In this document: positions 4,181 to 50,119 of the stretch, piece after piece | How positions within the stretch are numbered: position 1 is the stretch's first letter | Layout of the letters: each line of letters begins with the position of its first letter | Translations under genes and position numbers: made by a program | The notes under the pieces: generated by a model | What the model saw: only the letters and a program-made list of their open reading frames with translations | Told to the model about the DNA's origin: nothing | The model's database searches: none | Assembly: GCA_947629365.1 (NCBI GenBank) | Contig: CANRDM010000001.1 | Coordinates: 1-56,631, forward strand | Direction of reading: 5' to 3' | DNA length: 56,631 nucleotides | Source: an uncultured Bacilli bacterium | GTDB lineage: Bacteria > Bacillota_I > Bacilli_A > RF39 > UBA660

Positions 4181-6361
4181 ATGTATACTGAAGATACAAA
4201 ACCAGAAATTGACTGGGGAAATTTAATAAAAAAAGGTATTGTTATATTAGTTGTGGCTTTAATTGTTTTCTTCATCATTTGGTTATTTGTAAAAGGAAAC
4301 AATAACAATAATGGTGTTAATGTAGAATATGACAATCAAACTAATAGTAGTACTAATAACAATAATAACAATAATTCATCTAATGATATTAATAATAATA
4401 CTGCTTATTCAAAAGAATTCTTAGAAGGCTATCGTTATTTTCACGATACTGCTAAAGAATACTTTCTAATAAGTGAACTTCCATCTAAAGGTAAAACATT
4501 AAAATATACTCTTCAAGAATTAATTGATAAAGAATTAATATTTGCTTGGATATATAAAGATAATAAAACTTGTGATACAGAAGGAAGTTATGCATATGTA
4601 ACTAACAATAATGGTAAATACAAATTAACTGTTTCACTTGTATGTGGGGTTGAAGTTGCTAAAACAACTGAAGAATTAGGATGTAATCAATTATGCTTAA
4701 GTGGTAATTGTGAAAATAATCCGGAAGTTGATGAATATGTTAAAGAATATCAATATAAACAAGCTTATACTGTAAGTGAAACTGTTTATAGTTGTCCTAG
4801 TGGTTATACTAGAAGTGGTTCTAAATGTATTAAAGATAATAAGAATACTATAGAAGCTACTAAAACTGTAAATTATGTATGTCCATCTGGTTATACCAAA
4901 AGTGGTACTGGTTCAAGTACTAAATGTTATAAGAGCTCTACTGATCAAGTAGCAGCAAAAGAAGAAGTTACTTATACTTGTCCTGCTGGTTATACCAAAA
5001 GTGGATCTGGTGAAAATACTAAATGTTATAAAACTGATTCAAGTTATAAAGAAGCTCAATATAAAGTAAATTATAGTTGTCCTGCTGGTTACAATAAAGT
5101 TGGTAACTCTTGTGTAAGAAGTGAAAGTATTAATCCTTCTTCAAATGTTACTTATAGTTGTCCGAGTGGTTATACTCAAAATGGAGCAATATGTACTAAA
5201 ACTGAAACAGTAAACCTATCAAGTAGTACAACTTATAGTTGTCCTAGTGGTTACCAATTAAGTGGTTCAATGTGTTATAAAACTGAAACTATTAATGCTA
5301 CTCCATCAAATACCACTTATACTTGTCCTGCTGGTTATACACAAAGTGGCTCTAAATGTTTAAAATCAGATACTATAGCCGCCACAGCAAATACAACTTA
5401 TAGTTGTCCAAAAGGTACACCAATTAATAATGGCCGTGCTTGCCGTATTACAACAAAATCATCTTATACTACATCTTATGAAGTATATCACGGCGATGTA
5501 TATCAAGGCTGTACTTGGGCTGGAAGTTATACTGATAAATGTTCTGGTTCAGCTAATTGTACAAGAACATATCATAAGTATAGTTGTTCAAAAACTTCTT
5601 ATAATGATGTAGCTGCGACAGCAAATACATATTATAGTTGTCCTACCGGTTATGATCTAAAAGGATCTGGAAATACTAGTTCTTGTACTAAGACAGATAC
5701 TATTAATGCTACTCCATCAAAGACAACTTATACTTGTCCTAGTGGTTATGATAAAAATGGTACTACTTGTTCAAAAACTGTAAGTACTAGTGCAACTCCA
5801 CAAACTACTACAGGAAGTTGCCCTGCTGGTTATACTCAATATGGTTCAACTTGTTCAAGAACAGTAAGTACTAATGCAACTCCTACAACTGATATTAGTT
5901 GTCCAAGTGGTTATAATAAAAATGGTAATCAATGTACTAAAGATTATTATAGCGAATTAGTTGAAACTAAAGAATATTATTGTAGTGGTGATGAAGTATT
6001 AAGTAATGATAAATGTTATTATAGTTATTCAGATACTAAAAACCCAACATCTACTACAAATTATACTTGTCCTGCTGGTTATACTAGAAATGGTTCAAGC
6101 TGTACTAGAACAATTGAAGAAAATAGAACAGCTATTAAAGACACTACTTATAGTTGTCCAAGTGGTTATACTAAGATTGGCGCTGGTAGTGAGTCTAAAT
6201 GTACAAAAGGTTCTACAACATCTATTGACGCTACTAAGACAACGAAGAATGTTACTAAATACAGATATAAATGGAGTCAAGAAGAATCTCTACCTGGTTG
6301 GGAAAGAACTGGCGAAGTAAGAGAAGCCAAAGTTGTTAATCAACCTGAAGTAGAAAAATAA
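4181..6361 (+). CDS. membrane-anchored surface protein with about 15 tandem Y-x-C-P-x-G-Y...G..C-x-K Cys-pair repeats
   Basis: AAGGAGG lies 8 nt upstream and the start is 14 nt after the previous stop. N-terminal TM helix IVILVVALIVFFIIWLFV, then an Asn-rich spacer, then repeats such as YSCPSGYTRSGSKCIK, YTCPAGYTKSGSGENTKCYK and YSCPSGYTQNGAICTK. Confidence 0.7.
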   Translation: MYTEDTKPEIDWGNLIKKGIVILVVALIVFFIIWLFVKGNNNNNGVNVEYDNQTNSSTNNNNNNNSSNDINNNTAYSKEFLEGYRYFHDTAKEYFLISELPSKGKTLKYTLQELIDKELIFAWIYKDNKTCDTEGSYAYVTNNNGKYKLTVSLVCGVEVAKTTEELGCNQLCLSGNCENNPEVDEYVKEYQYKQAYTVSETVYSCPSGYTRSGSKCIKDNKNTIEATKTVNYVCPSGYTKSGTGSSTKCYKSSTDQVAAKEEVTYTCPAGYTKSGSGENTKCYKTDSSYKEAQYKVNYSCPAGYNKVGNSCVRSESINPSSNVTYSCPSGYTQNGAICTKTETVNLSSSTTYSCPSGYQLSGSMCYKTETINATPSNTTYTCPAGYTQSGSKCLKSDTIAATANTTYSCPKGTPINNGRACRITTKSSYTTSYEVYHGDVYQGCTWAGSYTDKCSGSANCTRTYHKYSCSKTSYNDVAATANTYYSCPTGYDLKGSGNTSSCTKTDTINATPSKTTYTCPSGYDKNGTTCSKTVSTSATPQTTTGSCPAGYTQYGSTCSRTVSTNATPTTDISCPSGYNKNGNQCTKDYYSELVETKEYYCSGDEVLSNDKCYYSYSDTKNPTSTTNYTCPAGYTRNGSSCTRTIEENRTAIKDTTYSCPSGYTKIGAGSESKCTKGSTTSIDATKTTKNVTKYRYKWSQEESLPGWERTGEVREAKVVNQPEVEK

Positions 6362-6367
6362 TAAATT

Positions 6368-6398
6368 AAAAAAGGTCATCACAAAATGAGCCTTTTTT
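6368..6398. terminator. bidirectional terminator between convergent genes
   Basis: AAAAAAGGTCAT-cacaaa-ATGAGCCTTTTTT, an imperfect hairpin flanked by an A-run and a T-run. Confidence 0.5.
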
Positions 6399-7035
6399 AT
6401 TTAACTAAATTAACAAAATCAGGAGGTGGCGTTGTTATCTCAATTAATTTATTAGTTATAGGATGATTAAAGGCTATGTAATAAGCGTGTAAACATAGTC
6501 TTTTTTCTTTATCTTTTTTATTATAAATTCTATCTCCTACGATAGGATATCCTAAATCATTTAATTGTACTCTTATTTGATGTTTACGACCAGTTTTAAT
6601 ATTAATTTTCAGTAAACTATATAATTTATTATTTCTTATCTTTTCATATTCCGTAATCGCTTCTTTACCGGTTTTAGAACTATATACGTAATTAGTAGTT
6701 GTTTCTTTTAAATATGATTTAATGATACCTTTAGATGGCATATTACCTCTTACTAAGGCAATATATTCTCTTTTAACATTTGCCCAATTATCTTGTAAGA
6801 TATTTTTGGCTTTTATATTCTTAGCAAAAACAACTATACCTGAGGTATCTTTATCGAGGCGATGAACAATAAATACTTTATTATTTTTATTTTGTTTTTT
6901 TAAATAAGTTGATACTTGATAATACAAAGTATTTTCTTTTTCTTTTAAAGTACTTATAGTAAGTAAATGCACACTTTTACTAACAACAATAATATCTTTA
7001 TCTTCGTATAAAATATCTAATTTTTTCTTTTTCAT
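6397..7035 (-). CDS. RluA-family pseudouridine synthase
   Basis: Motif HRLDKDTSGIVVFAK plus KTGRKHQIRVQL. 212 aa with no S4 domain. Confidence 0.85.
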   Translation of the reverse strand: MKKKKLDILYEDKDIIVVSKSVHLLTISTLKEKENTLYYQVSTYLKKQNKNNKVFIVHRLDKDTSGIVVFAKNIKAKNILQDNWANVKREYIALVRGNMPSKGIIKSYLKETTTNYVYSSKTGKEAITEYEKIRNNKLYSLLKINIKTGRKHQIRVQLNDLGYPIVGDRIYNKKDKEKRLCLHAYYIAFNHPITNKLIEITTPPPDFVNLVK

Positions 7036-7063
7036 TAATTAAGTTTAAAGAAAAAAAGTATTG

Positions 7064-7813
7064 CTACTTTTTATCATTTTTTCCTTTCATTGCTTCAAGT
7101 ATTTCAACTGGTAAACAAAATAGAATTGTATTTGATTTATCAGAAGAAATATCACTTAATGTTGATAGAGTTCTAAGATGCATTGCTCCAGGTGTACTAC
7201 TCATAATCTCGGCTGCTTTAGCTAAATTATTAGATGCTTCCACTTCACCTTTAGCTTTTGTTACTACGGCTTGTTTTTCTCTTTCGGCTTCAGCTGCAAT
7301 TGCCAACACTCTTTTCATATCTTCTGGTAATGAGACATCTTTAAGTTCAACATTTTCAACTTTTATACCCCAAGGATCAGTTGCTTCATCAATTATTTTA
7401 CATATTTCTGTACTTATTTTATCTCTTTCAGCTAAAAGTTCATCAAGAGAAACGGAACCAACAACATTACGCATTGTTGTTTGGGCAAGTTGACCAACAG
7501 CATAATAGAAATCTTCAACTGCTAAAATAGCTTTTGAGGCATCAAATAATTTATAATATATAACGGCATTTATTTGAACTGAAACATTGTCTTTAGTAAT
7601 TGCTTCTTGACTTGGAACATCAACTGCTTTAGTTCTAATATCAACCTTTTTATATGATTCAATAATAGGTAACACTAATTTCCAACCTGGTGTTAATACT
7701 TTAACAAATTTACCAAAACGAAACTTAATACCTCTTTCATACTCGTTTATTTGTTTAATTGAACAAATAATAACGATTATTATAAAAACTATAATTCCCA
7801 TAATTATTTCCAT
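7064..7813 (-). CDS. SPFH/band-7 (stomatin-like) membrane protein
   Basis: N-terminal TM helix, then SPFH-like core ...EYERGIKFRFGKF...TKDNVSVQINAVIYYK... and an Ala/Glu-rich coiled-coil tail. Confidence 0.8.
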   Translation of the reverse strand: MEIIMGIIVFIIIVIICSIKQINEYERGIKFRFGKFVKVLTPGWKLVLPIIESYKKVDIRTKAVDVPSQEAITKDNVSVQINAVIYYKLFDASKAILAVEDFYYAVGQLAQTTMRNVVGSVSLDELLAERDKISTEICKIIDEATDPWGIKVENVELKDVSLPEDMKRVLAIAAEAEREKQAVVTKAKGEVEASNNLAKAAEIMSSTPGAMHLRTLSTLSDISSDKSNTILFCLPVEILEAMKGKNDKK

Positions 7814-7841
7814 TTTACTACTCCTTTACTTCATTATATTA

Positions 7842-10001
7842 TTATTTATCTTCTTTTATTTCTTCTTTTTTAGGTAGTGCTTCTTTTCGAGATAAGTTAA
7901 GACGACCTTTATTATCATAACCTAAAGATTTAACAATAATTTCATCGCCAACTTTAACGATATCACTTGGTTTATTAACTCTCTTATTATCAAGTTGAGA
8001 AACGTGAACTAAGCCTTCACAACCTTCCCAAAGTTCAACGAAACAGCCAAAGTCTTCAACTTTTACTACTTTACCAGTATAAATTTTACCGGTTTCAACT
8101 TCTCTTATAACGCTTTCAATCATTTCTCTAGTCTTTTTAATAATTTCGGCATCACGATGATAAATGATGACTCTTCCATCGTCTTCTAAATCCACTTTAA
8201 CGGCATCTTTATCATTAACTGTTTTAACATTACTAGCTTCCAAAATAATTTTAGTAATCATTTCGCCACCACGGCCAATAACATCTTTAATTTTTTCTGG
8301 ATCAATTGTAAATGTTTCAATTTTAGGAGCATATTTACTTAATTCTTTTCTTGGTTCTTTAATAACTGTTTCAAATAAATCTAAGATTTCCATTCTAGCT
8401 TTTTTAGCTTGCACTAAAGCTTCTTTTAAAATATTTTTATTAACACCATCAATCTTAATATCCATTTGTAAAGCACAAATACCTTTTCTCGTACCTGCAA
8501 CTTTAAAGTCCATATCTCCTAAATGATCTTCCATACCTTGAATATCTGTAAGAATCGTATATTTATCTTCATTAGTTATAAGACCCATCGCAATACCTGC
8601 AACTGGAGCTTTAATTGGGACACCAGCAGCCATTAAAGATAGACATCCAGCACAAATACTAGCTTGACTCGATGAACCATTACTTTCTAAAATTTCGGAT
8701 ACTACTCTAATAGTATAAGGGAATTCTTCTTCAGAAGGTATTACTTGAAGTAGGGCTCTTTCACCTAATGCACCGTGACCAATTTCTCTTCTGCCAGGTG
8801 AACCATAACGACCGGTTTCCCCAACACTAAATTGTGGGAAGTTATAATGCAACATAAATCTTTTTTCTTCTTCAATAGAAAGACCATCAAGCATTTGGCT
8901 TTCCCCTAAAGCACCAAGTGTGGTAATAGATAAACTTTGCGTTTCTCCTCTTGTAAATAAAGCTGAACCGTGAGTTCTTGGTAAAATATCAATTGAGGCA
9001 CTTATTGGTCTTATTTCATCCATCTTACGGCCATCAATTCTAATATGTTCATTAACCACTATTTTTCTAAATACTTTATATTGAACACTTTCAAATACTA
9101 AAGCCACTTTAGTTAAAAGTTCCGTTAATTCTTCTTCTTTTAAGCTATCTTCATTTAAAGATTTATAATGTTCAATTAAATCATTCTTTAAATTATCGAT
9201 TGTTTCATACATTGTTAATTTATCTTTAATTCTTAAAGCAGCATCTAATTTTTCAGTTATAGCATCTTCTATCTCATTTCTTAAATCAGGAGATATAAGA
9301 AGATGTGGATATTCCATTTTGTCTTCGCCAATTTCTTTAATAATTTCTAACTCAAAAGCTACTAATTTTTTAATTGCTTCAAAACCAAATAATAAAGCCT
9401 CTAGCATATCATCTTCCGATACTTCTTTACTACCAGCTTCAACCATATTAATGGCATCCATTGTTCCAGCCACAGTTAAATCAATATCTGATTGTTCTAA
9501 CTCTGCTACAGTTGGATCAATAATAAACTTACCATTAACTCGACCAACTTTAACCGCCGCAACGGGACCATTAAACGGAATCTTACTTATACAAGTGGCT
9601 AAAGATGAACCAAATAAAGCTGTAAGTTCTGGCGAATTATCTTGATCAACACTTAAAACAGTATTGACGATTTGTACTTCATTACGAAAATCTTCAGGGA
9701 ATAATGGACGCATTGGTCTATCTATCATTCGCGCTGCTAGTGTAGCATTGTCGGTTGGTCTTCCTTCTCTTTTAATAAAACCACCAGGAATTTTACCAAC
9801 TGAATACAATTTTTCATTGTATAAAACTGTTAATGGAAAAAAATCTGATAAAAGATTTGCTGTTTTTGAGACAACGGCGGTACTTAAAATAACCGTATCA
9901 TCAAATCTAACTAAAACAGCACCATTTGCTTGTTTAGCCATTTCTCCATTTTCAACAATTAATTTTCGACCATAAAAATCTAATTCAAATACTTTCTTCA
10001 T
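7842..10001 (-). CDS. pnp: polynucleotide phosphorylase
   Basis: 719 aa with two RNase PH-like halves, KH and a C-terminal S1 domain ([15 protein letters not shown]). Downstream of rpsO, as in most bacteria. Confidence 0.97.
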
Positions 10002-16936: not shown

Positions 16937-17404
16937 TTAATAACCTTTGCTTTTATAATATTCATATAATTCTTTGAAGCGATTAAAATGGACTACTTCT
17001 CTTTGTCTTAAAAATAAAAGGGGAGCTAGAACATCTTCATCATCAGTTAAATCAATTAAGTTTTCATAAACCGCTCTTGCTTTTTGTTCAGCAGCCATAT
17101 CTTCCATTAAATCGGCAATTGGATCGGCAGTTACAGCAAAATAAGTTGCGGTAAAAGGTACACCACTTGCATCAACTGGATAAATACCTTTATTATGGTC
17201 AGCATAATATGAAGCAAGACCAGCTTCTTCTAATTCTTTTAAAGATGCATCTTTAGTAAGTTCACTAACCATTGAGCAAATCATCTCACAATGACCTAAT
17301 TCTTCAGTTGCAATATCATTAAGTAAGGCTCTTCCTTTGTCATCTGGCATTGTAAATTTTTGACTAAAATAACGCATTGCGGCAGCTAATTCTCCATTTG
17401 CACC
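16937..17404 (-). pseudogene. cotJC: cotJC (Mn-catalase-family spore coat protein), 3' portion cut off from its 5' end by the prophage
   Basis: Translation ...FGGANGELAAAMRYFSQKFTMPDDKGRALLNDIATEELGHCEMI...MEDMAAEQKARAVYENL... is colinear with remembered B. subtilis CotJC from about residue 29 onward. It lacks a native start. The track ORF start at 17416 lies in phage DNA. Confidence 0.9.
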
Positions 17405-17423
17405 ACCAAAGTGCAAAAGCGAT
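17395..17423. other. attL junction (host cotJC arm | GCACC core | phage arm)
   Basis: catttGCACCaccaaagtgcaaaagcgat. The phage arm 17409-17423 is the reverse complement of atcgcttttGcactt, matching the attR phage arm in 14 of 15 positions. Confidence 0.75.
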
Positions 17424-46133: not shown

Positions 46134-46787
46134 ATGGAAAATAATTTTGCGTCAAATTTAAAACATTTGAGATTGCAAAAAGGACTAACTCAACAAGAAT
46201 TAGCGAATAAGCTTGGAAAAGATTATTCAACAATTGGAAAATGGGAATTAGGACAAAGAAGTCCTATAATGACTGATGTAATAAAAATCGCGAATTTTTT
46301 TGATGTATCTTTGGAGAAATTAATTGGTTCATCAATTATCTATGATAATGCAGAAATAATACCCACATCAGAAACTATACAAATTCCGGTTTTAGGAACT
46401 ATTAAAGCTGGAATTGCTATTGAAGCTCAACAAGATATATTAGAATATATAGATATACCAAAAGAATGGTTAAAAGGTGGCAAATTGTTTTACGGTTTAA
46501 AAATAAGTGGAGATAGTATGGCACCAAAATATGAAGAAAATGACATTGTTATATTTGAACAAAACAATGATTTTGATAAAGCCAATAATAAAGACTGTGC
46601 TGTTATGGTAAATGGTTTTGATGCTACATTTAAAAACGTAACAATAAACGAAAATGGTATAACACTTGTACCACTTAATTTAAATAATCAAGACCACTAC
46701 TTACCAACTTTTTACAATAAAGAACAAATAGCAAATTTGCCAGTTAAAATTATTGGTATTGCTAAAGAAAAGAGGACGAGATTATGA
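46134..46787 (+). CDS. CI-like repressor (XRE HTH + S24/LexA-type autopeptidase domain)
   Basis: N-terminus LRLQKGLTQQELANKLGKDYSTIGKWELGQR. C-terminus ...ISGDSMAPKYEENDIVIFE... (Ser of the S24 motif) with a Lys later in the chain. Confidence 0.9.
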   Translation: MENNFASNLKHLRLQKGLTQQELANKLGKDYSTIGKWELGQRSPIMTDVIKIANFFDVSLEKLIGSSIIYDNAEIIPTSETIQIPVLGTIKAGIAIEAQQDILEYIDIPKEWLKGGKLFYGLKISGDSMAPKYEENDIVIFEQNNDFDKANNKDCAVMVNGFDATFKNVTINENGITLVPLNLNNQDHYLPTFYNKEQIANLPVKIIGIAKEKRTRL

Positions 46788-47254: not shown

Positions 47255-47370
47255 TAATAGTTAATAAAAATATATATTTTATTTAAAATTGCATATAATA
47301 GAGTTAGGAAAGTCAAAATTAATTGATTTTCTACCAAACTTGTGGTAATATAATTACACAAGTTGTAATT

Positions 47371-47476
47371 GACTGCATTGTGAAGAATTTTTTTCGAGGA
47401 ACATATTAGTCAGTCTGATTATAACATCAAGAATAGCGTTGTGAAGAGGAAACTCGAGGAACATATTAGTCTATTC
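47371..47476 (+). ncRNA. two tandem structured RNA repeats (61-nt period), candidate type III antitoxin
   Basis: Core GC(A/G)TTGTGAAGA-N7/8-CGAGGAACATATTAGT occurs twice (47375-47410 and 47436-47470). Each core is closed by a different helix, GACTG/CAGTC (47371-75/47411-15) and GAATAG/CTATTC (47431-36/47471-76), giving three compensatory pair changes. A TATAAT lies at about 47294. Confidence 0.6.
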
Positions 47477-47483
47477 GCTGTTT

Positions 47484-47513
47484 AAGGAACTCTATTATTA
47501 GGGTTCCTTTTTC
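47484..47513 (+). terminator. intrinsic terminator between the RNA repeats and the toxin gene
   Basis: AAGGAACTC-tattatta-GGGTTCCTT followed by TTT, about 20 nt upstream of the toxin RBS. Confidence 0.7.
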
Positions 47514-47533
47514 AATTGTTAGGAGGTAAATTT

Positions 47534-47902
47534 ATGAAAAATGGAGAAATATATTATATAGATTTTAAAGGCAATAGAGGTTCAGAAATAAATGATATAC
47601 ATTTAGGCATAATATTTACTATTCCTAAAGTAAAGAATATGGTATTTTGTATTCCTCTTACAAGTCCAAAAGAAAAACATTTTAAGAACATAGATGCATT
47701 TAATAATCGTAATCATAATGAATTAAAATATCAAAATTTAATTTATATAGATAAAACGGATTCAATAGCATTATTAGATCAAATTAGAACAATATCAACG
47801 CAAAGATTAATTAAATCTTATAACGTAACTTTAGATATTACACATATAAATTTAATTATAGTTAAAGTTAATAAATTTATAAAAAATGTAATGAAAAAAT
47901 AA
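47534..47902 (+). CDS. PemK/MazF-fold endoribonuclease toxin without a protein antitoxin gene
   Basis: 122 aa from ATG 47534 (AGGAGG 7 nt upstream). GEIYYIDFKGNRGSEINDIHLGIIF..., ...FCIPLTSPKEKH... and DSIALLDQIRTISTQRL parallel remembered B. subtilis MazF/EndoA (GDVYFADLSPVVGSEQ..., DSVILLEQIRTIDKQRL). Confidence 0.75.
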   Translation: MKNGEIYYIDFKGNRGSEINDIHLGIIFTIPKVKNMVFCIPLTSPKEKHFKNIDAFNNRNHNELKYQNLIYIDKTDSIALLDQIRTISTQRLIKSYNVTLDITHINLIIVKVNKFIKNVMKK

Positions 47903-47927
47903 TTAGGTTGAAATTTTAGAAAAATTA

Positions 47928-47961
47928 AAAAAGACCTCTACTCTGCTAGAACAGAATAGAG
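47928..47961 (-). terminator. minus-strand intrinsic terminator between the toxin and integrase genes
   Basis: On the minus strand CCUCUAUUCUG-uucuag-CAGAGUAGAGG (one G-U) is followed by UCUUUUUU. No T-run follows it on the plus strand. Confidence 0.55.
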
Positions 47962-48014
47962 GTAAATGAAAACCCAAACTAAACGAATTTTAATAGCCCA
48001 TATTAAATATATTT

Positions 48015-48091: not shown

Positions 48092-49534
48092 ATGAAAGAA
48101 GAAAGAATTGCTGCAATATATATTCGTGTCAGTACAGATTCTCAAACAGAATACTCTCCTGATGCACAATTAAAAGCAATAAAAGAATACGCCAAAAGAA
48201 ATAATATTGAAATAGATCCTAAATACATATACAAAGACGAAGGCTTTAGTGGCCGTAAAGCAGAAAAAAGACCAGCATTTATGCAAATGATCGCTACAGC
48301 TAAAACAAAGCCTACTGCCCCATTTAATGTTATCTTAGTACATAAACTAGATAGATTTGCAAGAAATCGTGAAGATAGTATAGTTTATAAATCATTACTC
48401 AAAAGGGAATGCAAAGTTGAAGTAATATCAATTACCGAAGATTTTGGCGATGATAAGTTTTCTGTTATTTTAGAGGCAATGTTAGAAGCAATGGCAGAAT
48501 ACTACTCTCTTAACTTATCTGATGAAGTAAAAAAAGGTATGGTTGAAAAGGCAAATAGAGGTGAATATCAAACAAAAGCACCCTTTGGCTATAAAATGGT
48601 CGATAAAAACTTAATTGTTGATACAGAGGCCTCAAAAATAGTAAAAATGATATTTAATGATTATCAAAATGGAATTAGTTTTAAAGGCATTGCTAAAAAA
48701 TTAAACAATTTAGGGATCAAAACTTCGCAAAATAATAAATGGGAAGTAAGAACTATTGAATATATATTAAGAAATCCTGTATATAAAGGTTATACTTTAT
48801 GGACACCTAATGCAAAAAGTAGTTGGGATTATAAATTTAAAGCAAAAAATGGCATCTTAAAAAAAGGAAGCCACGAATCAATTATTGAAGAAGCCACTTT
48901 TGATAATATTCAAAACCAAATTTTAAAGAAAAAAGATTTATATAAATCGACTTCAACTAGTAACTTTAGTTGGATTAGTAAGTTAGTAAAATGTAGTAAT
49001 TGTGGTTCTACTCTAACCACACAAAAAAATGCTCTTCAATGTATAGGCTATTCTCACGGAAGTTGTGAAGAAAGTCATTATATTAGTTATTCTAAAATTA
49101 TACCAGCAATATTAAATCAAATTCAAAAAGATTATAAAAATCCTATTAACATTAATTTTAGTAAGAAAAAAATAAAAAATGATATTTTAGATGAAAAAGA
49201 TATTTTAGAAAATAATTTAAAAAATTTGCAAGAAAAATTAGTAAGAAGTAAAAATTTATATTTAGAAGGAATAGATACTTTAGAAGAATATAAAGAGAAT
49301 AAATTGCAAATTGAAAAAAACATTAAGGAAATTAATGAAAAAATTGATAAACTACCTAAAGGCAAAGAAACAGTCAAAGAACAAAACATTTCTATAAATG
49401 CTAAAAATGTATATGAATTATTAATTGATGAAAAAATTGATATGGTAAAAAAATACACTGTCATTCACGAACTTATTGATTATATTGTTTATGATAAAAA
49501 AAATGAAACCATTGAGATTTATTACAAAGAATAA
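48092..49534 (+). CDS. large serine recombinase (phage integrase)
   Basis: 480 aa. Resolvase-type catalytic N-terminus AAIYIRVSTDSQ..., a recombinase domain, a zinc-ribbon CSNCGS..C...C and a C-terminal coiled coil. Its stop lies 21 nt from the att core. Confidence 0.93.
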   Translation: MKEERIAAIYIRVSTDSQTEYSPDAQLKAIKEYAKRNNIEIDPKYIYKDEGFSGRKAEKRPAFMQMIATAKTKPTAPFNVILVHKLDRFARNREDSIVYKSLLKRECKVEVISITEDFGDDKFSVILEAMLEAMAEYYSLNLSDEVKKGMVEKANRGEYQTKAPFGYKMVDKNLIVDTEASKIVKMIFNDYQNGISFKGIAKKLNNLGIKTSQNNKWEVRTIEYILRNPVYKGYTLWTPNAKSSWDYKFKAKNGILKKGSHESIIEEATFDNIQNQILKKKDLYKSTSTSNFSWISKLVKCSNCGSTLTTQKNALQCIGYSHGSCEESHYISYSKIIPAILNQIQKDYKNPININFSKKKIKNDILDEKDILENNLKNLQEKLVRSKNLYLEGIDTLEEYKENKLQIEKNIKEINEKIDKLPKGKETVKEQNISINAKNVYELLIDEKIDMVKKYTVIHELIDYIVYDKKNETIEIYYKE

Positions 49535-49539
49535 AAAAC

Positions 49540-49566
49540 ATCGCTTTTACACTTAGCACCTCCAAA
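49540..49566. other. attR junction (phage arm | GCACC core | host cotJC arm)
   Basis: atcgcttttacacttaGCACCtccaaa. Confidence 0.75.
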
Positions 49567-49650
49567 TTGAGTAAGTAAATATTTAGCCATTCTTAAATCT
49601 TTTTTGCTTATATTTATCGGATAATTGGTATGCTTAACATATTTAAACAT
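49556..49650 (-). pseudogene. cotJC: cotJC 5' portion (about 31 codons) separated from the rest of the gene by the prophage
   Basis: GGAGG lies 8 nt upstream of ATG 49650, which overlaps the cotJB stop. MFKYVKHTNYPINISKKDLRMAKYLLTQFGGA then reads into phage DNA (KCKSDVFYSL*). Confidence 0.85.
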
Positions 49651-50119
49651 AAAGATTACCTCCTAAATCATCCCAAGGCCAAGGACTATCAATCCAAGTA
49701 AACTTATCACCTTTAGTCTTATTTACTGTAAGTGGTCCATAACTTTCCATATATTCTTTTTTAGCTTCTTTTTCTTCTTTTACTAATTGCTCAAATAAAT
49801 CCATTACTTCTTTATCATCGGGATGAAGATCTAAGTATAAATTTAAATCATTGATGGCAAAAGAATATTGCATAACATTAAATAATTTTGCTTCTCTATC
49901 ACTTTTAGGGCGAATATTTATGTAAGTTAAATTTTTATAAGGAACATATTCATTTTTAAACATATTTCCTCTTAAAAATCCTTCTTTAGCTGGTAAAATA
50001 TTTGGATTACTTTTGTCAAACATTTGATTAGTCATATTAATACTTTTACCTAAATTATTACCACTAGTTAAGTTTAATAAAGCAAAATCTAAATCAACAT
50101 TGTTATTATCAAATAACAT
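49643..50119 (-). CDS. cotJB: spore coat protein CotJB with a CotJA-like N-terminal half (apparent fusion)
   Basis: The C-terminal half ...FNVMQYSFAINDLNLYLDLHPDDKEVMDLFEQLVKEEKEAKKEYMESYGPLT is CotJB-like. The N-terminal half ...LPAKEGFLRGNMFKNEYVPYKN resembles the CotJA motif. Confidence 0.75.
   Translation of the reverse strand: MLFDNNNVDLDFALLNLTSGNNLGKSINMTNQMFDKSNPNILPAKEGFLRGNMFKNEYVPYKNLTYINIRPKSDREAKLFNVMQYSFAINDLNLYLDLHPDDKEVMDLFEQLVKEEKEAKKEYMESYGPLTVNKTKGDKFTWIDSPWPWDDLGGNLYV

Follow-up and report, generated by a model that had tools for sequence, protein, structure and literature searches.

We analyzed a small RNA-toxin module in a 56,631-nucleotide (nt) stretch of DNA from an uncultured Bacilli bacterium (assembly GCA_947629365.1, contig CANRDM010000001.1), which we refer to as the window. 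At positions 47290-47965 of the plus strand, two structured RNA units and an intrinsic terminator (T1) stand directly in front of a gene for a MazF/PemK-family toxin. We propose that this module represents a new type III-like toxin-antitoxin (TA) family, with folded RNA units as the inhibitors to which the toxin binds. T1 would hold the RNA at an excess, and a loss of transcription would free the toxin. We give this reading a probability of about 0.6. The architecture of the module and its conservation support the type III-like assignment, and we infer from the sequence the binding and inhibition of the toxin by the RNA, the toxicity, the RNA processing, and the anti-phage effect. An earlier note, made from the letters of the window, had already suggested a type III-like system at this site.

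Read along the plus strand, the module consists of a short motif (CATATAATAGAGT), two inverted repeats (H1 and H2), a promoter, the RNA units R1 and R2, T1, a ribosome-binding site (RBS), and the toxin open reading frame (ORF). R1 lies at 47368-47418 and R2 at 47429-47478, and both are matched by a covariance model of the units (71.6 bits, E = 9e-19, and 66.1 bits, E = 5e-17, respectively). Each unit is closed by a helix (P1) of its own sequence, in which GACTG at 47371-47375 pairs with CAGTC at 47411-47415 in R1, and GAATAG at 47431-47436 pairs with CTATTC at 47471-47476 in R2. Inside R1 there are a 2-bp bridge (helix P3), an inner hairpin (helix P2), and the conserved loops UGAA and GAGGAA; R2 has the same core and a different P2 hairpin (GAG-GAAA-CUC). 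The two units share a core of about 40 nt and differ in their closing helices and linkers. Within this core, TCGAGGAACATATTAGTC is an exact 18-nt repeat with copies at 47394-47411 and 47454-47471, which are 60 nt apart, GCATTGTGAAGA (47375-47386) and GCGTTGTGAAGA (47436-47447) differ by one base, and GCRTTGTGAAGA is repeated 61 nt apart, with an overall R1-R2 spacing of 60-61 nt. The 17-nt repeat core has just two sites in the 56.6-kb window, against a chance expectation of 0.01, and the 181-nt leader is more stable than all of 200 shuffled versions (z = -2.96).

T1 (47484-47514) has an 11-bp stem at 47484-47509 followed by a T-run. It lies between R2 and the toxin RBS, 20 nt upstream of the toxin ATG with the RBS alone in between, and the aligned loci keep it in the same place; two terminator-like sites occur in the module region, against 0.1 in shuffled sequence. 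The RBS, AGGAGG at 47521-47526, is 7 nt before the ATG and is kept in the leader alignment, and the toxin gene runs from the ATG at 47534 to the stop at 47902, encoding 122 amino acids (aa). The two repeats, their unlike closing helices, the terminator, and the RBS are all present where the earlier note had placed them.

We aligned 61 distinct units with MAFFT and built the covariance model from this alignment. In helices P1 (6 bp) and P2, 93.7% of the cells are paired, compared with 25-47% in controls that shift the 3' partners by 1-3 columns. A total of 146 cells are changed on both sides of a pair, and none of 500 shuffles matches the observed covariation score. RNAalifold, used unaided, returned the same P1 and P2 helices together with two invariant loop-loop pairs, and its pair types comprise 17 G-U pairs and 2 A-C mismatches, an excess that identifies the plus strand as the strand that folds. 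Among 49 independent units that were absent from model building, P1 and P2 are 95.8% paired, with shifted controls at 24-47% over the two sets of units, and the two pairs of P3 show compensatory change (UA 33, AU 8, and GC 5 for one; GC 40 and AU 8 for the other). From this covariation, each unit of about 50 nt is predicted to be a closed three-helix hairpin made of P1, a loop, P3, the UGAA/GAGGAA internal loop, and P2, and the purine-rich internal loops are highly conserved. The strong covariation of the closing helices and the inner hairpin bears out the earlier suggestion of selection on RNA structure. The description of the repeats themselves stands for their number, two in the window, and is refined in that they are closed three-helix domains and that a third unit is usual in the broader family.

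The RNA stays with the toxin wherever we found it. We scanned 331 kb, comprising the window and 43 loci, with the covariance model and found units upstream of toxins only, plus a third copy behind the toxin of one locus (L038; homologous loci are numbered with the prefix L). Nearly every locus has two copies upstream of the toxin, and the model also finds units in all of the more distant loci retrieved, so the repeats are conserved and strictly toxin linked, as the earlier note expected. The leaders, taken as the 260 nt upstream, contain two units, a terminator, and an RBS in nearly every locus. About 70 related loci from metagenome-assembled genomes (MAGs) of gut Bacilli, from prophages, and from metagenomes retain the RNA-terminator-toxin layout, at protein identities as low as about 45%. 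The genes that flank the module vary by locus, and the RNA remains beside the toxin in every context.

These relatives form a small family that is sharply set off from other PemK proteins. The first protein search gave about 200 homologues, and all homologue searches together gave about 200-300. The 41 loci obtained from the species-level genome collection are all in MAGs, from uncultured gut Bacilli, "Tenericutes," or Erysipelotrichaceae, and the hosts sampled were rabbit, ruminant, bird, and human. A wider clade with about 35-50% identity was reached through distant representatives; its members are located at prophage ends, directly 3' of holin and endolysin genes, and they also occur on two IMG/VR contigs (from a second scan of that database, the first having given none) and at 27 metagenome loci. 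Among 1.84 billion representative proteins, five full-length clusters at 50% identity scored 99-199 bits and the next scored about 43 bits. A tblastn search with the toxin family found no match in 50,697 phage records or 72,556 plasmids.

We looked for a conserved partner protein by comparing neighboring ORFs all against all. No such protein was found among ORFs of at least 45 aa within 2.5 kb on either side of the toxin at 41 loci, or among ORFs of at least 25 aa within 1.2 kb on either side at 51 loci, and the "ORFs" that did recur in these comparisons were the toxin and reflections of conserved DNA on the antisense strand. The earlier note had seen no MazE/PemI-like neighbor and had named a conserved small protein antitoxin at homologous loci as one result that would count against its reading; across the 41 and 51 loci, no ORF of this kind appeared. 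It had also given 9 and 14 codons as the longest upstream frames. That figure was inexact, since, with TTG and GTG starts counted, a TTG-initiated 28-codon frame lies on the plus strand at 47323-47409 and a 36-codon frame on the minus strand at 47354-47464, but neither is conserved as a reading frame. The antisense ORF was considered as a protein antitoxin and dropped because it is present in 21 of 51 loci, varies in length, and has no Shine-Dalgarno sequence. In addition, the length changes of the P2 hairpin are not multiples of three, which excludes a coding frame in the leader.

The 122-aa protein matches the Pfam family PemK_toxin (PF02452) with an E value of 6.5e-10 and 39.6 bits, above the cutoff of 23.1 bits, and no other Pfam family, Abi_2 included, was found at an E value of ≤10. 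The MazF equivalogs of NCBIfam score far under their cutoffs, and PADLOC returned only a noise-level CARF match. With a profile of 27 homologues, a sequence search of the PDB gave MazF chains only, and these were weak (E values of 0.03-0.8); no ToxN, AbiQ, or CptN chain was found at an E value of ≤10 with the same profile. An AlphaFold2 model built on 99 homologues has a mean predicted local distance difference test score of 89.8 and a predicted template modeling (TM) score of 0.81. Its best Foldseek matches in the PDB are the MazF proteins of Bacillus subtilis, Staphylococcus aureus, and Mycobacterium tuberculosis, with E values of about 2e-5 and TM scores of 0.64-0.73. CptN (4rmo_A) ranks 46th (E = 1.5e-3; TM score, 0.50-0.61), after 45 chains of MazF-family toxins, and no ToxN or AbiQ is within the 50 best fold matches. 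Judged by profile score and modeled fold, the toxin is a true MazF/PemK-family protein that lies outside ToxN, AbiQ, and CptN by sequence, and the MazF/PemK identification made in the earlier note agrees with this.

Catalysis by MazF relies on an Arg and a Thr. An alignment with MazF-mt1 places the conserved Thr43-Ser44 of the PLTSPK motif in the region of the catalytic Thr of MazF. Relative to MazF-mt1, the toxin carries an additional segment, partly helical and spanning approximately residues 46-68, in which K46, K48, H49, F50, K51, R59, and N60 are conserved.

The number and position of the units vary among loci. A third unit (R3) is found 14-43 nt past the toxin stop codon in L038, in L068, and in the majority of the wider clade, with a terminator or a terminator-like hairpin behind it. 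We checked 11 relatives with this arrangement in the 3' untranslated region (3'UTR) of the toxin; R3 is at 4405-4453 of L038, 3458-3505 of L048, 3456-3501 of L052, 3437-3484 of L054, and 2951-2998 of L057, and it is also present in L060, L061, L064, L068, L070, and L074. The general layout is one or more promoters, R1, R2, T1, toxin, R3, and a second terminator (T2), and the subfamily of the window usually lacks R3. A third unit in the 3'UTR is easier to reconcile with a stoichiometric ligand than with a 5' attenuator. Three loci have a single unit with an intact toxin ORF (L006, 137-187; L031, 2330-2379; L063, 1391-1440). Each of these single units is chimeric, joining the 5' half of R1 to the 3' half of R2, and has a partly mismatched closing helix, as expected from recombination between two copies. 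In L041 (1108-1403), the RNA is absent and the toxin ORF is truncated after 53 codons, a double loss that would be expected were the RNA required for tolerance of the toxin.

To our knowledge, the known type III toxins comprise three related families and a recent AbiF case, and their likeness to MazF is structural only. We searched the literature for a MazF-type type III system and found none. The operational criteria for type III systems are tandem repeats, a terminator, a toxin, and the lack of a protein antitoxin (PMC3401426). In the module, the toxin is directly preceded by a terminator, tandem units are upstream, and there is no protein antitoxin gene. The order of promoter, tandem RNA units, terminator, and toxin without a protein antitoxin is that of ToxIN/AbiQ, CptIN, and TenpIN (PMC3401426, PMC4627078). 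Published type III loci have 1.9-5.6 repeat copies with a period of 31-62 nt (Blower et al. 2012, PMC3401426), and the roughly two copies and 60-61-nt period found here are within these ranges. The Kid/MazF fold of the toxin and the setting in a prophage, mobile elements being common carriers of type III systems, are further points of likeness.

However, the module differs from these families. At 122 aa, the toxin is PemK/MazF by sequence, whereas the family means of ToxN, CptN, and TenpN are 149-168 aa (PMC3401426). The units are closed three-helix hairpins with unlike closing helices, whereas ToxIN-type RNAs are identical head-to-tail repeats that form pseudoknots, and many relatives carry the extra 3'UTR unit. 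Membership in ToxIN/AbiQ is contradicted by the lack of ToxN/AbiQ homology in Pfam, in PDB sequences, and in the 50 best folds. CptIN systems have toxins of about 150-160 aa and repeats of 40-48 nt; here there is no CptN sequence match, and the period is 60-61 nt. What bears indirectly on TenpIN is that PemK is the one significant family match of the protein. The earlier note had offered CptIN or a new family as the choice; for the toxin, the answer is a MazF/PemK-family protein that cannot be recognized as CptN, ToxN, or AbiQ.

With the type II systems MazEF and PemIK (Kid-Kis), the module shares the toxin family PF02452, by a Pfam score above the threshold, and the MazF fold, with a TM score of up to 0.73. 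It differs from them in the extra segment, in a His at the position of the catalytic Arg, and in having no adjacent MazE/PemI gene in the same operon. A closer architectural parallel is AbiF/RCd22 from a Clostridioides difficile prophage, where two hairpin motifs and a terminator lie directly upstream of the toxin (bioRxiv 10.1101/2025.04.15.648962). RCd22 binds AbiF directly, neutralizes it in cis and in trans, and is uncut between the motifs (bioRxiv 10.1101/2025.04.15.648962), so processing between units is not obligatory. The AbiF toxin belongs to Abi_2/AbiD/F (HEPN-like) and not to MazF, and the abiF motif (RF03085) is unrelated to the RNA units described here; with no Abi_2 match in Pfam and no abiF match in Rfam, the architecture alone is common to the two. 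Of the known systems, RCd22/AbiF offers the best functional parallel for closed hairpin units.

The RNA units do not correspond to a family that we could find in Rfam 15. Searches at gathering and lax thresholds gave no relevant family for the window leader or for 28 related loci, and a match to ncr1015 was rejected because it reached 21 bits against a cutoff of 60 and came mainly from the terminator. A pemK motif (RF02913) was reportedly described by Weinberg and colleagues in 2017 upstream of pemK-family genes in Firmicutes, so a PemK toxin with an RNA in place of PemI is not a new idea. That motif resembles the present units in being a conserved structured RNA. RF02913 gave no match at the gathering score in the window and 11 loci, none at an E value of ≤10 on 2-kb and 191-nt stretches, and none at an E value of ≤0.1 in 17 more loci. 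The units are thus distinct from RF02913 as it is modeled, although a distant relationship may exist. The existence of the RF02913 family under this accession is documented (Weinberg et al. 2017, PMC5737381), and Rfam classes it as cis-regulatory.

We envisage the following mechanism. The module would be a moron on a temperate phage, and a constitutive promoter would produce a structured RNA of about 130-150 nt with the two hairpin domains R1 and R2. The majority of transcripts would end at T1, and a read-through minority would encode the MazF/PemK endoribonuclease. The RNA domains would be specific, high-affinity ligands that hold the toxin inactive and replace a MazE/PemI protein. If transcription stopped, either because an infecting phage shut off the host or because the element was lost, the RNA would decay and the longer-lived toxin would be freed, resulting in growth arrest. 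The outcome would be abortive infection, prophage retention, or both.

Several observations weigh against this mechanism. An invariant His23 occupies the position that aligns with the presumed catalytic Arg of MazF in the MazF-mt1 alignment, and with a His there, nuclease activity is not assured. The units are closed hairpin copies with unlike closing helices and linkers rather than near-identical ToxI-like repeats, and this form fits a cis-regulatory element too. The distant units were aligned by fitting them to the model, which biases their alignment toward the structure. One locus, L005 (1-443), has an intact toxin that is 86% identical and no unit or terminator in its 80 nt upstream; these 80 nt are unrelated and reach the contig edge, and the locus is a single exception for which we have no explanation. 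Finally, RNA binding, toxicity, processing, and phage defense enter the mechanism by inference from sequence comparisons.

The co-occurrence of RNA and toxin would be explained about as well by a toxin that autoregulates its own mRNA through the units. In that case the toxin would preferentially bind or cleave its own message at the units, in the 5' leader and, in relatives, in the 3'UTR; a rise in toxin would destabilize or terminate the message and so hold the RNase harmless, with the enzyme itself uninhibited by the RNA. Units that flank the ORF on one transcript would suit this arrangement, closed hairpins resemble many protein-binding leaders, and the cis-regulatory listing of RF02913 points the same way. 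However, T1 yields a separate short RNA that would have no purpose in pure cis-feedback, and our inspection of the leader alignment found no alternative pairing with the terminator that covaries. A MazF-family RNase without any inhibitor would also be unusual, and the nearest architectural precedents, ToxIN and AbiF/RCd22, act in trans. We regard autoregulation as unlikely, while the most serious of the alternatives.

It is very improbable that we are dealing with a standard type II MazF and that its protein antitoxin escaped detection through very small size, an overlapping position, or a location elsewhere in the prophage, with the RNA being unrelated, for example, a phage small RNA. An HTH_3 gene 3' of the toxin in L046 and the CI-like repressor upstream in the window could be candidates for such a protein, but no ORF of at least 25 aa is conserved beside the toxin in the 51 loci, the P2 length changes exclude a coding frame in the leader, and the RNA remains with the toxin while the flanking genes change. 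Slightly less probable still is a tandem riboswitch or attenuator in which R1 and R2 serve as aptamers that sense a small molecule, or else a factor from the host or a phage, and control T1 read-through to an unguarded toxin gene; two similar structured domains with highly conserved internal loops do precede a terminator upstream of the gene, but no antiterminator is evident, the third unit 3' of the stop codon in many relatives is in a position from which it cannot attenuate, the single-unit chimeras of L006, L031, and L063 persist with intact toxins, and the RNA is confined to one narrow protein family.

Under the type III-like reading, what appears to be new, as far as sequence comparisons go, is that a type III-like layout is combined with a toxin of the MazF/PemK family and with an RNA whose fold Rfam lacks. 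We see an even chance that, in evolution, the module connects type II MazEF with the ToxIN-like systems of type III, with a P1-P3-P2 RNA fold containing UGAA/GAGGAA that Rfam does not hold and with two units before and one after the toxin gene, and that it has been spread by gut Bacilli prophages and may act in abortive infection or prophage retention. If the reading is true, one toxin fold has exchanged a protein antidote for an RNA, or the reverse, and the module offers a compact RNA-protein pair for studying how an RNA inhibits an RNase. Mutagenesis should be easy for an RNA of about 50 nt whose three helices are supported by covariation. The module would also be a candidate for phage defense or prophage addiction in barely studied gut Bacilli (RF39- and Erysipelotrichales-like MAGs). 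Genes of this family are labeled "type II PemK/MazF toxin" although they are without a type II partner, which is a systematic annotation error. These points are relevant to specialists in TA systems, phage defense, and RNA.

The region upstream of R1 contains the promoter elements. The motif CATATAATAGAGT (47292-47304) is kept in about 30 aligned leaders and includes a perfect TATAAT at 47294-47299; the motif is a candidate first promoter (promoter P1) and lies at the left edge of the conserved module. Members of the more distant clade have a proper TTGACA 16 nt before their counterpart of this TATAAT. A candidate sigma-A promoter (promoter P2) at 47323-47351 consists of TTGATT (47323-47328), a 17-nt spacer ending in TGTGg, and TAATAT (47346-47351), and the leader alignment keeps its elements as TTGAYTTT and TRTGnTAnnAT. 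The distant clade carries two promoters in tandem, both of them complete. The inverted repeat H1 (AGGAAAGTCAA ... TTGATTTTCT; 47306-47332) has the -35 box of promoter P2 in its 3' arm; its arms covary among loci (GAAAGTC/GACTTTC versus GAAAATC/GATTTTC), and its spacer is variable in length. The second inverted repeat, H2 (CTTGTG...CACAAG; 47339-47362), spans the -10 box of promoter P2, and the base that follows TRTG varies among loci in concert with the base it pairs with (G/C, A/T, T/A, and C/G). H1 and H2 may act as DNA operators, or they may form hairpins in the RNA of a longer leader. A promoter-like site on the minus strand (47445-47418; 11 of 12 matches) was dropped because other loci do not conserve it.

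R1 may have a further stem. Pairing of the leader TGTAA with the linker TTACA (stem extension P0) has a mean energy of -5.1 kcal/mol for cognate pairs, compared with -3.9 kcal/mol for non-cognate and -3.3 kcal/mol for shuffled pairs, which gives a P0 stem around R1 modest support. We considered the invariant ACA of GGAACAUAU as a mimic of the MazF ACA cleavage site. This idea is weakened by the pairing of its C and second A with G13 and U12 in helix P3 and by their covariation in the wider family, where CUU, UAU, and others take the place of ACA, and we do not rely on it. In a number of loci (L007, L008, L009, L011, L012, L017, L018, L023, L028, L033, L034, and L035), the P2 hairpin is identical in R1 and R2 of the same locus and free to differ between loci, while the two P2 hairpins of the window differ. 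As read from these sequences, the identity within loci points to concerted evolution of the cores by gene conversion, with the closing helices kept distinct.

The 5' arm and loop of T1, AAGGAACTCTATTATTAG (47484-47500), are similar to the conserved 3' part of the units, GAGGAACATATTAG (47455-47469), and this likeness partly follows clade-specific variants of the core, such as GGGAT in L033 and L034. The similarity of the T1 5' arm to the unit core may be what remains of a third, partial repeat. We also considered a pairing of the R2 core GAGGAAC with the 3' arm of T1, for which the partial-repeat relic is the simpler explanation. An antiterminator formed by ATAATAGAGTT (47295-47305) and the terminator's AACTCTATTAT was dropped because it shows no covariation across loci. 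On the other side of the toxin gene, 32 nt past the stop, a 13-bp hairpin at 47934-47963 was scored as a minus-strand terminator. It has an A-run in front of it on the plus strand (a T-run on the minus strand), yet the next gene, the integrase, is on the plus strand. A comparable A-run and hairpin occur downstream of the toxin in L003, L007, L009, L032, L035, and L040, and the hairpin may be the 3' end of the module.

The module lies in a prophage of the window (about 17.4-49.55 kb) that encodes an endolysin-like peptidase, a major head protein, a portal, a large terminase, a CI-like repressor, and a large serine integrase. The CI-like repressor (46134-46787) is followed by a 156-aa protein, the RNA and toxin, and the integrase (48092-49534, plus strand), so the module is between the lysogeny genes and the integrase, and the moron slot beside the integrase that the earlier note had described is confirmed. 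No family was matched by the 156-aa protein of the window; the homologue in L042-L044 weakly matches the Pfam family DUF3761. The module occurs at either prophage end, on the integrase side in the window and on the lysin side in the wider clade. It often adjoins tRNA genes or cotJB, which are typical integration hot spots (L013, L027, L028, L032, L036, L039, L060, L075, and L078, on the toxin 3' side, and L053-L055).

The prophage of the window splits a cotJC-like sporulation gene of the Mn_catalase family into two minus-strand parts, at 16937-17416 and 49522-49650. The first 33 cotJC-like codons are beside the integrase, upstream of cotJB (49643-50119), and the rest (Pfam positions 29-189) is about 32 kb away. 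Both junctions encode FGGA and have inverted half-sites (ATCGCTTTTGCACTT / AAGTGTAAAAGCGAT). We take the split gene to resemble the "intervening elements" of the skin/SPbeta type in sporulation genes. In a sister genome (L043; GCA_947624505.1, CANQKO010000006.1), a DUF3761-like gene, the RNA units, the toxin, and a serine recombinase are located at 4285-8117, between cotJC and cotJB. This element is only about 4 kb in total and lacks a phage body; it is a mini-element or else what a deletion left behind, with the toxin module and the integrase retained.

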